64,000 bases of DNA from Candidatus Latescibacterota bacterium (GTDB taxonomy: Bacteria > Latescibacterota > UBA2968 > GCA-2709665): contig CBDCOX010000002.1 of assembly GCA_965219995.1 (NCBI GenBank), positions 1,152,001-1,216,000 on the forward strand, in the 5' to 3' direction. Below are positions 42,689 to 49,352 of the stretch, one piece after another. The first letter of the stretch is position 1, and each line of letters begins with the position of its first letter. The notes beneath the pieces were generated by a model that worked only from the letters and a program-made list of their open reading frames with translations, was not told where the DNA came from and did not search any database. Both the position numbers and the translations under genes were made by a program.

Positions 42689-43336
42689 TTACCGGTCCTT
42701 TGCGGACGCCTCCTTCAGAATCTCGACAACCTCGGGCTTGTCGCGATATTCCGCCAGCCAGAGGGCCGTCTTCCCGTTTCGGGTGACGGCATCGGCGTCG
42801 GCGCCCTCATCCAGCAGGCGGCCCACCACGTCCTTGTGTCCCCCGTAGGCTGCGTAGATCAGCGGCGTCCAGCCGGACCGCGCGGTGGCATTCACGTCGG
42901 CCCCTGCGGTCAGCAGGACGTGGACCACGCCCGTCAACCCTGCGTCGGCGGCGAACATCAGAGGCGTCCGAAGGTTCAGGTCTCTGGCATCCACGACAGC
43001 GCCCGCATCCAGCAGGATCTCGGTGATCGTGGAATCCTTCTTGATCGCCGCCTCCATCAGCGCTGTCCGGCTGTAGAGATCGTCATTGACATCGGCGCCT
43101 GCGTCGAGCAGGAGCTGGACCACCTCGGGGACGCCTTTCTTTGCGGCTTCGATCAATGGGGTCGTCCCCCCCTTGCCATCTTCGTTCGCATCGGCGCCTT
43201 CGTCCAGGAGTTCCTTTACACCCTCTTCATCTCCTTTTTTGACCATGGCGATCAGATCCGTGTCTTCGGCGGATTTGCATGCCGAAAACAAAAGAAGCGG
43301 GACCAGGACCACAAGATTCAACGTACGACGCGCCAT
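42689..43336 (-). CDS. ankyrin-repeat lipoprotein
   Basis: Lipobox FSAC; about 5 repeats of G.TPL..AA..G....V..LL.AGADVN. Confidence 0.9.
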   Translation of the reverse strand: MARRTLNLVVLVPLLLFSACKSAEDTDLIAMVKKGDEEGVKELLDEGADANEDGKGGTTPLIEAAKKGVPEVVQLLLDAGADVNDDLYSRTALMEAAIKKDSTITEILLDAGAVVDARDLNLRTPLMFAADAGLTGVVHVLLTAGADVNATARSGWTPLIYAAYGGHKDVVGRLLDEGADADAVTRNGKTALWLAEYRDKPEVVEILKEASAKDR

Positions 43337-43560
43337 ACGAACACCGGTTTTCCAGCCACGCACTGTCCTAAGAATCCGCTTTGCAGAAAACGACCGAAAC
43401 GACACGATCATCGCCGAACCGCTCCTCAAATGCGATTGTCACTGTACCTCCGGCATCGGGGCATCTACAGAGTCACGAACACGCTGACCGCCACTTCGTC
43501 CGGAACGACCGTTGGGCCTTCTTGTCGGATCCCCGGGCTGACCCGGAATCGGTTTGGCGC

Positions 43561-45417: not shown

Positions 45418-45659
45418 CCGGGCGCCACAGGAATCACGATCGCCGTCCGGTCCCCCGGACAGGACGGATGTGCGTGCATCCGCCCGCGTGTAGATATGCG
45501 GACCGTTCAATGCGCTTCCTGTTGATGCGTCAACGGAACCCGGACGGGCCATGGCGCGTGGCCAGTCCCGTGAAGGAAAGGAGGCGAATCATGAAGGAGA
45601 TGAACACGCGGAGGGTGGCCGGCCGATAAGGACGGCCGACATTCCTTCAGAAAGTCGAA

Positions 45660-45692
45660 CCGGGCGCCCCCGAAAAGGGGCGCCCGGCTTTT
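45660..45692 (+). terminator. strong stem-loop terminator
   Basis: CCGGGCGCCCC-CGAAAA-GGGGCGCCCGG-CTTTT. Confidence 0.75.
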
Positions 45693-45718
45693 GCTAAATG
45701 AGCTTGTCCTGTCTTCGG

Positions 45719-47086
45719 CTATTCCATTCTCATCGGCATCAGAATCGCCTTCCGGTCGGGATGGTCCGATGATACGAACAGGAGCGCGTTCTGCGGATCG
45801 GAGAAATAGACGTCCACAGTCCCCTCTGCTTCGACCCCCGATATCACGTCGCCAAGAAAGTCGTGATTTACGCTGACCCTGAAGGGTTCCGGACTGTGTT
45901 CCAGGTTGACCTGTCCATCCAGTGAAGTCATGAACCGCCAGTACGGGACATCAGCCCATGGGGCATCGTCGTTTGACACCGGCGAGTCAGCTTTTTCCTT
46001 GGCCACACCATAGCCCATGTCTCTCGACGTGATCAGCGAGAGCGTCTGATCGGCCCCGGATATCTGGATCTCTACCTTGGGCGCATAGGTCCATACATCG
46101 GAAACCGGATGGCGAGGTTCCAGATGCTCTTTGATCAAGTCAATTGCTCGCAGCAATTCGCCTGCGGCCAGCCTGGCGGTCATTCCCGCCGCGTCGGGAA
46201 TGACCGCTTCATAGTTCACGTAGGAATCGTCGATAATCGGAATCTTGCGTTTCTTCTCGCCCTCGACACGAAGGACCGCCGCCTTCTCTTGGATGGAAAT
46301 CGTGGCGCGTTTCGTGCCTCGATCCTCCAACTCGAAACCCGGCCCGAGGAGTACCTGCCTGTCCAGGTCCTCAGTCCCCTGCAGCGTGCGCAGCAGCAAC
46401 CTTGCGCCGTCCGCTGCGATCACACGTCCCCCCGTATCCAGGCAGACCCCGCAGAGTATAAGGCGGGACTCGTCGCTGCTCACGAACCGGGTCGCCCAAT
46501 GGAGGGCTCGAAGGTCCTGCGCCGTAAGATCATATGTCTGTCCAACGTTTTTCATTTCGTTCATCTCCTTTCGGATCCGCTGCCTCGCCTTCTGCAGGCG
46601 GCTGCGGACCGTGTTGACTTGCAGTCCCAGCTGATATGCGGTTTCCGCGTAGGAACGCCCCTCGAAATAGTGCTTTTCGATCACGTCACGATGCGCTTCT
46701 GACAGCCTGCGAATCGCCTGCCTGATCATCATCCGTGCTTCCCGCTCCGCCCCCGAATCGTCAAATGCAAGTTCCCGCCATTCCTCGGTCAACAGACGCT
46801 CGAAACGAACCTGAACCATTCGCCGGCGGCACCACTTAACGGCCGCATTATCCGCGATTTTCAAAAGCCAATGTGAAAACCGGCTTCCATCCCGCAGTTG
46901 ACCCAGACGCCGAAACGCCTGCAGGAATACCTCCTGCGCCAGGTCTTCGGCATCGTCCGGTTGCCTGACGATACGGCGGATTCTCGCGAAAACCAGCCCG
47001 CCATGGCGCTCCACGAGGCGGCCGAACGCCCATGTTTCTCCCGATACCGCCAGCCGGACCAGGTCCCGGTCCTCGAGTGGTTCCAA
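45719..47086 (-). CDS. ECF sigma-70 factor fused to a DNA polymerase III beta-clamp-like C-terminal module
   Basis: aa 1-175 carry DAEDLAQEVF, FSHWLLKIA and SYAETA...NTVRSRL (sigma2/sigma4). The C-terminal half carries FVSSDESRLILCGV, AADGARL, YVNYEAVIP, VNHDFLGDV and ILMPMRME. TTG start with GGAGG RBS. Confidence 0.85.
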   Translation of the reverse strand: MEPLEDRDLVRLAVSGETWAFGRLVERHGGLVFARIRRIVRQPDDAEDLAQEVFLQAFRRLGQLRDGSRFSHWLLKIADNAAVKWCRRRMVQVRFERLLTEEWRELAFDDSGAEREARMMIRQAIRRLSEAHRDVIEKHYFEGRSYAETAYQLGLQVNTVRSRLQKARQRIRKEMNEMKNVGQTYDLTAQDLRALHWATRFVSSDESRLILCGVCLDTGGRVIAADGARLLLRTLQGTEDLDRQVLLGPGFELEDRGTKRATISIQEKAAVLRVEGEKKRKIPIIDDSYVNYEAVIPDAAGMTARLAAGELLRAIDLIKEHLEPRHPVSDVWTYAPKVEIQISGADQTLSLITSRDMGYGVAKEKADSPVSNDDAPWADVPYWRFMTSLDGQVNLEHSPEPFRVSVNHDFLGDVISGVEAEGTVDVYFSDPQNALLFVSSDHPDRKAILMPMRME

Positions 47087-47131
47087 ATGACGCCTCCCGG
47101 AGGGGGCGGAACATCACGCACGCGACATGAA

Positions 47132-47161
47132 TACAGATACCCGGCGCGACGGAAAGTATCC
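47132..47161 (-). promoter_or_regulatory. candidate ECF-type promoter upstream of the sigma-clamp gene
   Basis: GGATACTT-16 bp-TCTGTA resembles the sigmaE-type GGAACTT-N16-TCnnA consensus. Confidence 0.35.
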
Positions 47162-47209
47162 TGCGGACGATAAAAAATCCCGGCGCCACGCCTGCTCGCG
47201 GTCCTCAAA

Positions 47210-47241
47210 CAAAAAAGCCACCCGATACGGGCGGCGGCTTG
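47210..47241 (-). terminator. rho-independent terminator after the transglutaminase-like gene
   Basis: Minus strand reads GCCGCCCG-TAT-CGGGTGGC-TTTTTTGTTT. Confidence 0.7.
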
Positions 47242-47273: not shown

Positions 47274-49352
47274 TTATAATGAGACCGCGAGACTACTGAC
47301 GGGACCCTTTACGCCGGCGCTGTTGACGGATCGCACCCGCAGGGTGTTCAGCCCAATGTGCAGACGCCAGTCGAAGGCCTCCAAGCACGGTTTCCATTCA
47401 TCCCGGTCCACGCTGGACAGAAAACCCGAGAAACAGGGTGTCTGCGTCTCCAGGCTGACCCTCAGCAAGGCCGCGTTCCGCGTCGTCTCCACCGTGTACC
47501 GGGTCTGGTTCATCGACGGATAGAAGTCCGATCGCCGGTTCGTGTGACGCGAGAAGTGCGGCAGCGGCGGCACGATGTCATCTGCCCAGTTGAGATATCC
47601 GTCCCACGCCCAGACCTCCGTGCCCTGACTCACCGGAAGCGGCCGCGGCTGACTGAACACGTTGCTGCGCGGGATCATCCGGAAGTGGCAGAAGGACCGG
47701 AACAGAAAGTGCGCTCCTTCGGTTGTGGAAAACTCGTGGCGGCCTTCCCGTATCCCGATCGGCAGGTCACGGACGAGTGAATCCAGGTCCTGCCGGAACA
47801 GATACGGACAATCCCAGCGTTCGACGTCCTCGAGCCGGTCCACGAGGACCCGGTGCACCTCGAGCGTATCCAGCGGCACACGCGTTTCCGGATCGTACCA
47901 GTAGAAATCCCGAGTGGCGTCCAGATGGACCCACTTGCCATAATCGTTCGACCAGACCTCCGCAATCTCGTGCCCGGTCATGCCTTCGCTGTGAAAGTTC
48001 ACGTGACGCGCGGGAAAGCCGAAGCTCAGGCACGCGGCCACGAGCGCCACGTTCGGATACAGACACATCTTGTCGCGCCGGCGTTCCCTGTATCGATTCA
48101 TTGAAATCGCGCCCGATTCGTCCCGCTCGAGCACCAGCCAATCCAACACGTTCCAGGGAAAGTGCCGGCACGCGCCCAGCGGAACGGCATACGCCCACGC
48201 CATCAGGCGCTCGATGGCTTCGAATTCAGTCTGCGCCCCGGAGACAACGGCGTCCAGTTCAAACCGTTCTCGCAGTTGCCGCAACGTGTCGTGCCCGTAG
48301 TCTTCATCCGCGCGCCAGAACGAAGACCGTCTGATGACCGGGTTCTCCGCATTGACGATTCGCGGACGCGGCGCACCGTCAGGGCGCACCTCCGCCTGAA
48401 CCCGAATCGTTCTCAGAACAGGAGTGCGCGCCGGATCCGACGTCTGAAGCCGCATGCGCCATTGGAGGTAACGTCCCTGCAGGCGCGTTACCGGCGACCC
48501 GCGTTTACATGATTGCCATTCGCTCCAGCCCTCCCCGTTCACAACCGGGCCGGCCCCCGTGCGCACCTCACAGCCGACAGCAGTTCCACCCGGGACGTCC
48601 GCGTCCCAGTCCAAATGCAATTCACGAATGGATTGGCGCCGCTTCACGCCGTCGCGTTCGCCCGCGGCATCGATGACCGGCGACACGACAACCCCTTCCT
48701 CGCGATAACCGTCCACGATCAGCCGGATCACGTATTCGCCGCGTTCTGGCTCCCAATCGCCGTTTCGACGCACAAAACTCGACGCGGGCAAAACGACCGG
48801 GTCCGCCATTCCCTTTTCGAAGTCCCGGTAATCCGCCACCGTCAGGCTCCATCCCACCCTCCCGCCCGCCACGTCGACAGCCAGATGGTTTTCACCCTGC
48901 CGCAGACATCCCGGCGGAAGTTCCACGTAATACCAGCGGCTCCAGCTCCACGCGCCTTCATCGGACGCCAACTCCCAGTACTGCCGGGCGTCGGGGGTCG
49001 CCAGCGGGGACGGCGGCCGCAGCACCTCCCGTCCGTTGACGTTGAATCGCAATGTGGCCGAATGGCCCCGCCTCTCCCTTGCGATAAAGGCGACCTGTGC
49101 CTTCCCGGGAGGACGCTGCGCCAACGTCAGTGTCTTCTTCAGCGCCGCGCGGCCCGATAATGCCAGGAACGGGTCCTCGTCCCGGTCGTCCGACCTTCCG
49201 GCGCCGGGGCTGTCGTTCTCCGCCACCGAACCTCTGAAGAGGCGGATCCCGTCTTCTTCTTCCCCCATCCAGAGATCCGTAACGTCCGAGCCACTGTAGA
49301 TCTCTCGCGCGGGAAAGCGGGTCTCGATCCGCCTGTATCCCTCTTCAGCCAT
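47274..49352 (-). CDS. transglutaminase-like domain protein with N-terminal beta-sandwich domains
   Basis: Cys-His-Asp triad pattern MCLYPN...GFPARHV...GHEIAEVWSNDYGKWVHLDAT. Confidence 0.8.
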   Translation of the reverse strand: MAEEGYRRIETRFPAREIYSGSDVTDLWMGEEEDGIRLFRGSVAENDSPGAGRSDDRDEDPFLALSGRAALKKTLTLAQRPPGKAQVAFIARERRGHSATLRFNVNGREVLRPPSPLATPDARQYWELASDEGAWSWSRWYYVELPPGCLRQGENHLAVDVAGGRVGWSLTVADYRDFEKGMADPVVLPASSFVRRNGDWEPERGEYVIRLIVDGYREEGVVVSPVIDAAGERDGVKRRQSIRELHLDWDADVPGGTAVGCEVRTGAGPVVNGEGWSEWQSCKRGSPVTRLQGRYLQWRMRLQTSDPARTPVLRTIRVQAEVRPDGAPRPRIVNAENPVIRRSSFWRADEDYGHDTLRQLRERFELDAVVSGAQTEFEAIERLMAWAYAVPLGACRHFPWNVLDWLVLERDESGAISMNRYRERRRDKMCLYPNVALVAACLSFGFPARHVNFHSEGMTGHEIAEVWSNDYGKWVHLDATRDFYWYDPETRVPLDTLEVHRVLVDRLEDVERWDCPYLFRQDLDSLVRDLPIGIREGRHEFSTTEGAHFLFRSFCHFRMIPRSNVFSQPRPLPVSQGTEVWAWDGYLNWADDIVPPLPHFSRHTNRRSDFYPSMNQTRYTVETTRNAALLRVSLETQTPCFSGFLSSVDRDEWKPCLEAFDWRLHIGLNTLRVRSVNSAGVKGPVSSLAVSL

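Follow-up and report, generated by a model that had tools for sequence, protein, structure and literature searches.

An open reading frame (ORF) on the reverse strand of the window, by which is meant the whole stretch of 64,000 nucleotides (nt) analyzed here from contig CBDCOX010000002.1 of a Candidatus Latescibacterota bacterium, encodes a protein in which an extracytoplasmic function (ECF) sigma factor is joined in one frame to domains II and III of a bacterial β sliding clamp (DnaN). Our analysis demonstrates that this sigma–clamp fusion is real and old, and that it is conserved across the phylum. Residue conservation points to retention of the hydrophobic pocket for clamp-binding motifs, comprising subsites I and II, in the clamp half. 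There is, in our judgement, an even chance that this half-clamp takes the place of an anti-sigma factor, as an integral regulatory extension that binds peptides without forming a ring and possibly acts via a conserved linker motif within the sigma factor.

Sigma Factor and Clamp Fold

The ORF comprises 455 codons from a TTG start, exactly as the initial annotation of this DNA described, and all nine of the motifs quoted there are present in the translation. According to its profile matches, the N-terminal half of 177 residues is a standard group-IV (ECF) sigma factor. Regions 2 and 4 are both matched by Pfam above the respective cut-offs (Table 1). Moreover, region 4 is also matched by PF04545 (40.3 bits against a cut-off of 24.1), and the ECF superfamily model TIGR02937 of NCBIfam reaches 93.9 bits (cut-off 42.9) over the sigma half. 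Neither Sigma70_r1 nor Sigma70_r3 was found by Pfam at E ≤ 10 in the 455-residue protein, and none of the named ECF equivalog or subfamily models of NCBIfam reaches its own cut-off on it.

The C-terminal 278 residues, termed the module below, constitute β-clamp domains II and III without domain I, whose place is occupied by the sigma domain. When a profile constructed from six module sequences was searched against the sequences of the PDB, β clamps accounted for the top 49 of the 60 matches listed, the best being 8xla_A (E = 1.8e-10), and the match was in register over domain II and the final part of domain III. For the other 11, E exceeded 0.5. The same profile, searched against 1.84 billion representatives, gave 4306 matches at E ≤ 1e-3, with the module family ranked first and canonical DnaN proteins of approximately 365 residues appearing from about E = 1e-15. 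The model TIGR00663 (dnaN) of NCBIfam was matched with E = 4.7e-8, module residues 6–140 lying on profile positions 125–269 of 367, at 32.4 bits, below the equivalog cut-off of 137.65. Pfam on its own would overlook the clamp half: DNA_pol3_beta_3 was matched below threshold (E = 0.009, 16.2 bits, range 16.2–17.7, against a cut-off of 27), while the profile, NCBIfam and fold searches all give a clamp.

Regarding the fold, the AlphaFold2 model of the module, calculated from a 67-sequence alignment, has a predicted local distance difference test score (pLDDT) of 95.4 and a predicted template modelling score (pTM) of 0.91. Foldseek returned at least 500 PDB matches to this model at E ≤ 1e-3, the best with E = 7.7e-15, and all among the matches listed are β clamps. 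VIA-align superposed model residues 1..277 onto residues 120..366 of E. coli β (Z = 25.1, root-mean-square deviation 2.6 Å over 235 residues), all 50 entries among the matches listed being bacterial β clamps. The best entry in the ESM Atlas, “putative DNA polymerase III subunit beta”, scored 0.87, which is under 0.9 and is regarded as a lead only. Of the clamp features considered, the processivity fold is thus present, and three domains in one chain are not, since only II and III are found. The C-terminal extension is paralogous to DnaN domains II and III, from which it diverged long ago.

At the level of individual motifs, MAFFT alignment with DnaN of E. coli K-12 pairs FVSSDESRLILCGV with FSMAHQDVRYYLNGM, DDSYVNYEAVIP with DGRFPDYRRVLP, AADGARL with ATDGHRL, VNHDFLGDVI with FNVSYVLDVL, and ILMPMRM with VVMPMRL, so that each clamp motif falls on the E. 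coli segment named for it in the initial annotation. The architecture proposed there, an ECF sigma factor followed by clamp domains II and III with domain I absent, is upheld by Pfam and NCBIfam, AlphaFold2 and VIA-align together. The full-length AlphaFold2 model (44-sequence alignment) has a pLDDT of 67.5 and a pTM of 0.45, with residues 205–245 below 50, and is too poor to bear on the packing of sigma against module. A predicted complex of sigma residues 1–177 with module residues 178–455 (51-row alignment for each) gave ipSAE values of 0.06 and 0.10 against a mark of 0.32, which speak neither for nor against docking.

Reality and Distribution of the Fusion

It was considered whether adjacent sigma and clamp-fragment genes had been wrongly joined in assembly or annotation. 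Contigs from three other studies span the junction of the two halves at about nt 46555 and contain no indel inside the ORF, their only indels lying outside it at 45693–45701 and at 47171. Furthermore, sigma factor and module occupy one frame, with both halves aligned, at each of the 29 loci retrieved from other genomes, down to 34% identity, and the frame is uninterrupted in 28 of them, many being single-contig chromosomes. Since the two halves are joined in the contigs of these three studies and share one frame in the loci of other genomes, the fusion is not an artefact. The absence of a stop between the halves, on which the initial annotation had made its proposal depend, holds both in the contigs of other samples and in homologues. 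Three observations could be cited in favor of a joining error, namely database entries of 278 residues that start at Met178, an in-frame TAG in one relative, and truncated copies in two genomes; given the bridging contigs and the single frame, that explanation is refuted and retains next to no credibility.

The relative in question (L021, on the 3.3-kb contig G059:C228) carries the TAG at approximately residue 358, for which a pseudogene, a sequencing error or read-through are all possible. The decayed copies were encountered in two complete genomes of related genera (L060, G107:C1:5375400-5379600; L061, G130:C1:2561700-2565900), where the sigma domain is intact and only about 60–70 module residues follow before the frame ends. 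In addition, about a dozen entries of approximately 270–290 residues start at the boundary Met and nest within sigma-fused clades; they are either truncated gene calls or real genes.

Among 168 species genomes of the phylum, 67 yielded the module, each with a single match, and in 62 of these the match covers its full length. Together with the 29 loci, this agrees with the prediction that the same architecture would recur in related genomes. By family, the positive genomes number 17 of 21 (f1), 15 of 31 (f2), 2 of 3 (f3) and 32 of 76 (f4), and none was found among 36 genomes of ten other families of the phylum. Looking beyond the phylum, a sigma domain is present on 46 of 147 cluster representatives among those listed. 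Within the module alignment A3, Sigma70_r4_2 was matched in 43 of the 67 diverse members, and Pfam detected the clamp part in only 12. The titles of 26 related records (L033–L058) mostly read “Candidatus Latescibacterota” and in a few cases “Gemmatimonadota”; within one genus, the phylum labels of submitters conflict between “Candidatus Latescibacterota” and “Gemmatimonadota bacterium”.

A full-length dnaN is present elsewhere in the genome, as had been anticipated, matching profile positions 1–366 with 239 bits, and its product shares only 22% identity with the module. In a quick IQ-TREE analysis of 104 rows, 63 two-domain modules were split from 41 DnaN domain II+III segments by a branch with a Shimodaira–Hasegawa-like approximate likelihood ratio test (SH-aLRT) value of 96. 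The tree drew on 41 of the 59 available DnaN rows, and the DnaN of the genome itself was left out of both the tree and the residue counts given below.

Two-domain modules without a sigma factor also occur, among the metagenomic representatives P0082, P0156 and P0071. Among these sigma-less modules, SEC-C zinc motifs stand at the C-terminus of two (E = 1.4e-9 and 1.3e-9), and a TFIIB-like zinc ribbon at the N-terminus of one (E = 0.003, under its cut-off). In the tree, P0071 falls with the sigma-fused modules, and the two proteins with SEC-C form a pair on a branch of their own within the two-domain clade. The MerR–clamp fusions mentioned in the initial annotation could not be confirmed, none being found by Pfam among the 67 members of A3 and 10 further proteins, nor in a literature search.

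Groove, Channel and Interface Residues

Residues of functional importance in clamps were compared between 51 modules of the family and 59 DnaN sequences (58 representatives and E. coli DnaN) aligned by MAFFT, the pocket and interface positions being taken from lists in PMC11139829. It should be noted that identity in this comparison is only 15–20%, and columns beside inserts are possibly misplaced. At 14 of 18 pocket positions the commonest residue of the family is also the commonest in DnaN. Among the 51 modules, R152 is retained in 43, L155 in 38, T172 in 36, D173 in 46, G174 in 42, R176 in 39, L177 in 37, V247 in 37, N320 in 47, M362 in 45, P363 in 50 and R365 in 37. The groove-forming segments DGxRL, YxxV and MPMR, to which the initial annotation had drawn attention, are conserved family-wide. 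The protein of the window is identical to E. coli DnaN at 11 of the 18 positions, with differences that include T172A, H175A, P242V, R246A and V344Q.

The surfaces through which a clamp encircles DNA compare differently. Two of the four channel helices are depleted in Lys and Arg, and one is shortened: helix α-II-2 has 13.5 residues in the family vs. 17.6 in DnaN, with 1.27 vs. 2.71 Lys plus Arg, and the net charge of helix α-III-1 is −1.55 vs. +0.81. The ring-closing interface, in which Ile272 and Leu273 face domain I, is not kept, and the domain I partner is absent. At the position of Ile272 the 51 modules have Pro in 19, Glu in 10 and Asp in 7, and at that of Leu273 they have His in 18, Phe in 12 and Tyr in 11, both positions lying near an insert where the alignment is uncertain. 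The module is acidic overall, with a mean isoelectric point (pI) of 5.16 in the family, 4.89 in the protein of the window, and a mean net charge of −12.8. Family-specific changes include the RHP insert at 323–333 and a remodelled segment at 248–260.

Linker Motif, Transcription Unit and Neighborhood

The coordinates of the features discussed are collected in Table 1. Between sigma regions 2 and 4, the linker carries a motif in which conservation reaches 90% or more at R87, R88 and Q92 (alignment A5, 51 fusions at 26–78% identity). Of the 13 ECF-like ORFs that phmmer located in the genome, only the sigma–clamp gene contains W.RRR..Q. Four of the others have long tails after region 4, of 207, 209, 430 and 586 residues.

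Table 1. Features of the sigma–clamp gene and its surroundings (nucleotide positions in the window; residues of the encoded protein).
Feature	Position	Strand	Details
Whole sigma–clamp gene	45719..47086	-	455 codons plus stop at 45719-45721; TTG at 47086
Shine–Dalgarno GGAGG	47093..47097	-	6 nt 5' of TTG start
Sigma region 2	46820..47017	-	residues 24-89; Pfam Sigma70_r2 PF04542, E 7.3e-15, 55 bits vs. cut-off 24
Linker motif W-x-R-R-R-x-V-Q-x-x-[L/F/W]	46802..46834	-	residues 85-95; between sigma2 and sigma4; family-specific
Sigma region 4	46574..46732	-	residues 119-171; Pfam Sigma70_r4_2 PF08281, E 1.2e-13, 50.9 bits vs. cut-off 25.7
Domain boundary	46553..46570	-	AAGGAG (codons K173-E174), then ATG of Met178 9 nt on; possible internal ribosome-binding site and start
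Clamp domain-II-like half	46187..46555	-	residues 178-300; TIGR00663 positions 125-269; model residues 1-123 on E. coli β from residue 120
Motifs of domain-II-like half			R208/L211; ADGARL 225-230; YVNYEAVIP 289-297
Clamp domain-III-like half	45722..46186	-	residues 301-455; N407, F410, C-terminal MPMR 450-453
Two family-specific conserved inserts in domain-III-like half			residues ~323-333 (E-P-R-H-P...) and ~355-381 (D-M-G-Y...D-D-A-P-W...P-Y-W); pLDDT 92-98 through inserts
Putative ring-closing surfaces			domain-II C-terminal half; domain-III N-terminal half
Promoter-like element GGATACTTT-N16-TCTGTAT	47127..47161	-	genus-conserved (alignment of 15 same-genus upstream regions)
Intrinsic terminator of upstream transglutaminase-like gene	47207..47235	-	8-pair stem and T tract; conserved in genus alignment
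Junction-spanning contig, X5 record 10	45600-46617
Junction-spanning contig, X4 record 6	46136-46603
Junction-spanning contig, X8 record 21	46437-47063

At the domain boundary a Met occupies the column in 45 of 51 family members, and AGGAG stands 9 nt 5' of the boundary ATG in all 18 loci where the search pattern located the Met, the pattern having no match in the other 6 of 24. Several 278-residue database proteins begin exactly at Met178. The boundary Met may represent an internal translation start that yields a free half-clamp, or the arrangement may merely reflect codon preference for Lys-Glu.

Since an intrinsic terminator closes the upstream gene, the sigma–clamp gene is its own transcription unit. 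The layout of the element GGATACTTT-N16-TCTGTAT resembles that of RpoE-type ECF promoters, and a separate unit behind an ECF-like promoter suggests autoregulation. A genome search with the composite motif, at one mismatch per box, gave five matches including the gene's own promoter; the composite motif is all but unique in the genome, so that no regulon could be derived from it; relaxed RpoE-like patterns gave 9–48 matches vs. 2–8 for scrambled patterns, mostly inside coding sequence and without a coherent gene set. One 158-nt metatranscriptome contig falls on 45891–46046, and it was not counted as expression because DNA carry-over is possible. Independent runs containing the sigma–clamp stretch are labelled as sponge, coral and marine metagenomes, and X5 and X8, both from sponge, match at 95–100%.

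The neighbors of the gene encode a transglutaminase-like protein, a DegT aminotransferase, a UMPH-1 nucleotidase and HU. Synteny with the transglutaminase-like, UMPH-1 and HU genes is confined to the genus and is absent from 15 distant loci, across which no neighbor recurs. No anti-sigma domain was seen among the neighbors of the gene, a result for the neighborhood only that leaves room for a novel anti-sigma factor elsewhere in the genome. The idea of a one-component regulator, put forward in the initial annotation, fits with the lack of both a conserved neighbor and a visible anti-sigma gene. The upstream gene (47274–49352, reverse strand) encodes 692 residues, in which the transglutaminase core is matched only marginally (E = 8.2e-5, 23.3 bits; cut-off 23). 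It lies in synteny with the sigma–clamp gene in 14 of 15 same-genus loci (L003–L017, the locus of the window included) and in none of the 15 distant ones. An ankyrin-repeat protein (Ank_2, E = 2.3e-43) is encoded at 42689–43429 on the reverse strand, with an N-terminus that by eye resembles a hydrophobic leader.

The Half-Clamp as a Proposed Regulatory Extension

Real clamps bind short QLxLF-type clamp-binding motifs in a hydrophobic groove. According to the reading preferred here, the half-clamp would form no DNA-encircling ring and would act as a covalent regulatory and protein-interaction domain in place of a separate anti-sigma factor, the occupancy of its retained groove setting sigma activity. 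Three ligands are conceivable. The W-RRR-x-V-Q-x-x-[L/F/W] linker segment may bind in cis, as an autoinhibitory element or conformational lock; a replisome or repair protein with a clamp-binding motif may bind and thereby report replication status; or a groove-targeting natural product may be the ligand. The signals put forward in the initial annotation, clamp-binding peptides, toxins or replication stress, are conjectural.

Comparison with known ECF sigma factors provides support for a regulatory role. As in ECF41 (SnoaL-like), ECF42 (TPR) and ECF238 (Cys-rich), a sigma2–sigma4 core is followed by a fused domain of more than 50 residues. Here the extension after region 4 amounts to 278 residues and was observed at the 29 loci, with region 4 detected in the 43 members of A3. 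These sigma factors likewise have no cognate anti-sigma gene, and none lies among the neighbors of the sigma–clamp gene. In ECF41, moreover, the extension is accompanied by a conserved linker motif, as it is here, and the C-terminal extension inhibits by contacting that linker motif (PMC8999054). Unlike the extensions of these three groups, that of the sigma–clamp protein is a two-domain β-clamp fold, which is not one of the types that the main text of PMC7826278 names, namely SnoaL, TPR, Cys-rich, DUF1835 and transmembrane helices. Its ligand, in contrast to those of other ECF extensions, is probably a peptide motif and not a small molecule or metal.

With DnaN, the module shares the fold of domains II and III, profile homology and most groove residues. 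It differs from DnaN in the missing domain I, the sub-threshold dnaN score, the fusion to a sigma factor, its separation as a group from the 41 sampled DnaN sequences, the loss of I272/L273, the less basic channel helices and the two inserts. A clamp that forms no ring can nevertheless keep groove function, because the monomeric β variant I272A/L273A still binds the δ subunit tightly, with a dissociation constant of about 7.5 nM (PMC11139829). This variant is engineered and has three domains, whereas the module is natural, two-domain and fused. The extension–linker contact in ECF41 and the binding of δ by the monomeric variant thus both support a regulatory extension.

Several points weigh against this interpretation. 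The peptide groove may be under selection in the sigma–clamp family, yet groove motifs are the most conserved structural parts of any clamp, and their retention may in part reflect fold stability. Within the genus, three of the E. coli pocket positions are smaller or different (T172A, H175A and P242V). AlphaFold2 places the linker motif within a long helix (H67-102), at low confidence, and known clamp-binding motifs bind as extended peptides. Both surfaces that would close a PCNA-like ring carry conserved family-specific changes, which could equally represent a new ring-closing interface, and the comparison of charges and interfaces depends on the low-identity alignment described above, with its possibly misplaced insert-adjacent columns. 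Furthermore, neither regulon nor signal could be deduced from the promoter-motif searches of the genome.

The same surfaces matter to the proposal, raised in the initial annotation, that the sigma factor slides on DNA. We consider it improbable that the two-domain module closes a PCNA- or gp45-like trimeric ring, loaded by the clamp loader via the groove, so that RNA polymerase would search for promoters in one dimension or couple to replication forks and nicks; a free module translated from Met178 could, with equally low probability, complete or cap mixed rings. PCNA and gp45 are indeed two-domain protomers in trimers, and the module likewise has two domains. Judged from the fold, head-to-tail geometry is compatible, the exposed domain-III N-terminal half and domain-II C-terminal half being those that pair in clamp interfaces; both bear the conserved changes at 323–333 and 248–260, and the groove used by the clamp-loader δ subunit is kept. 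In phage T4, gp45 tethers gp55–RNA polymerase to DNA (PMC7892883), and in phage Mu, MuC requires the β clamp in late transcription (PMC12867686), the link running in both cases through the hydrophobic pocket of the clamp. As in the T4 gp55/gp33/gp45 and Mu MuC/host β clamp systems, a promoter-specificity or activator protein is physically linked to a clamp fold. The phage systems, however, employ a separate, complete, DNA-loaded ring bound via C-terminal clamp-binding motifs, whereas here a partial clamp is covalently attached to a cellular ECF sigma factor and ring formation is doubtful. The helices that line the channel are depleted of positive charge, one of them being shorter as well, the hydrophobic pair I272/L273 has given way to Pro/Glu/Asp and His/Phe/Tyr, the mean net charge of the module is strongly negative, and three sigma domains would need room on one ring. 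The PCNA-like trimer is therefore weakened by the charge of α-II-2 and α-III-1, by the Ile272/Leu273 positions and by the acidic pI, and the two-domain protomer stands in its favor.

Retention of the groove would also suit a module that docks the sigma factor on partners with clamp-binding motifs (Pol III α, δ, Hda, MutL, translesion polymerases), competes for them, or co-assembles with DnaN, and exerts no cis regulation; transcription would then be localized to replication or repair sites, or the partners titrated. The coexistence of canonical dnaN in the same genome and the single copy in 67 of 67 positive genomes are in keeping with such a tether or decoy, as is the tighter binding of δ by the monomeric β variant than by the dimer (PMC11139829). 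We nevertheless regard it as unlikely: the domain-III interface, which co-assembly with DnaN would require, has not kept its hydrophobic pair; in the 30 loci examined, no replication or repair genes were seen linked to the gene; and the conserved linker motif is left unexplained. Very improbable, finally, is a passive scaffold for dimerization or stability, or a non-ring surface binding DNA upstream of −35. An extension C-terminal to region 4 would sit near that DNA in the established holoenzyme geometry, and monomeric clamp-fold DNA binders exist, such as UL42 of herpesvirus, a monomeric processivity factor. The acidity of the module, in the family and in the protein of the window, argues against this explanation, as does the concentration of selection on groove residues and not on basic surfaces.

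Implications

C-terminally extended ECF sigma factors are a known kind, of which the β-clamp type is new. Full-text searches of the literature, together with the main texts of the ECF papers named next, yielded no account of a sigma–clamp fusion. The main texts of the ECF reclassification (PMC7826278) and of PMC7671368 contain neither “clamp” nor “DNA polymerase III” nor “Gemmatimonad”, and that of PMC8999054 contains neither “clamp” nor “DNA polymerase”. Database records name members of the family only as sigma-70 family RNA polymerase sigma factor or ECF subfamily. Current annotation therefore misses the clamp half, as these sigma-only names and the few Pfam clamp matches reflect. With that half recognized, ECF biology gains a new type of extension, and structural work a natural two-domain clamp without the ring-closing pair.

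ECF sigma factors form the third pillar of signalling in bacteria, and the groove of the sliding clamp is both the replisome's hub and a validated target for antibiotics. If the module did form a sliding ring, transcription initiation would be physically coupled to replication forks or nicks, a cellular and covalent counterpart of T4 late transcription. The fusion might also be put to use as a portable sensor that detects groove ligands with one protein. Above all, the conserved sigma–clamp fusion suggests that a clamp-binding-motif signal, possibly the state of replication, a partner that binds the groove or a compound directed at it, can be read out directly as transcription.

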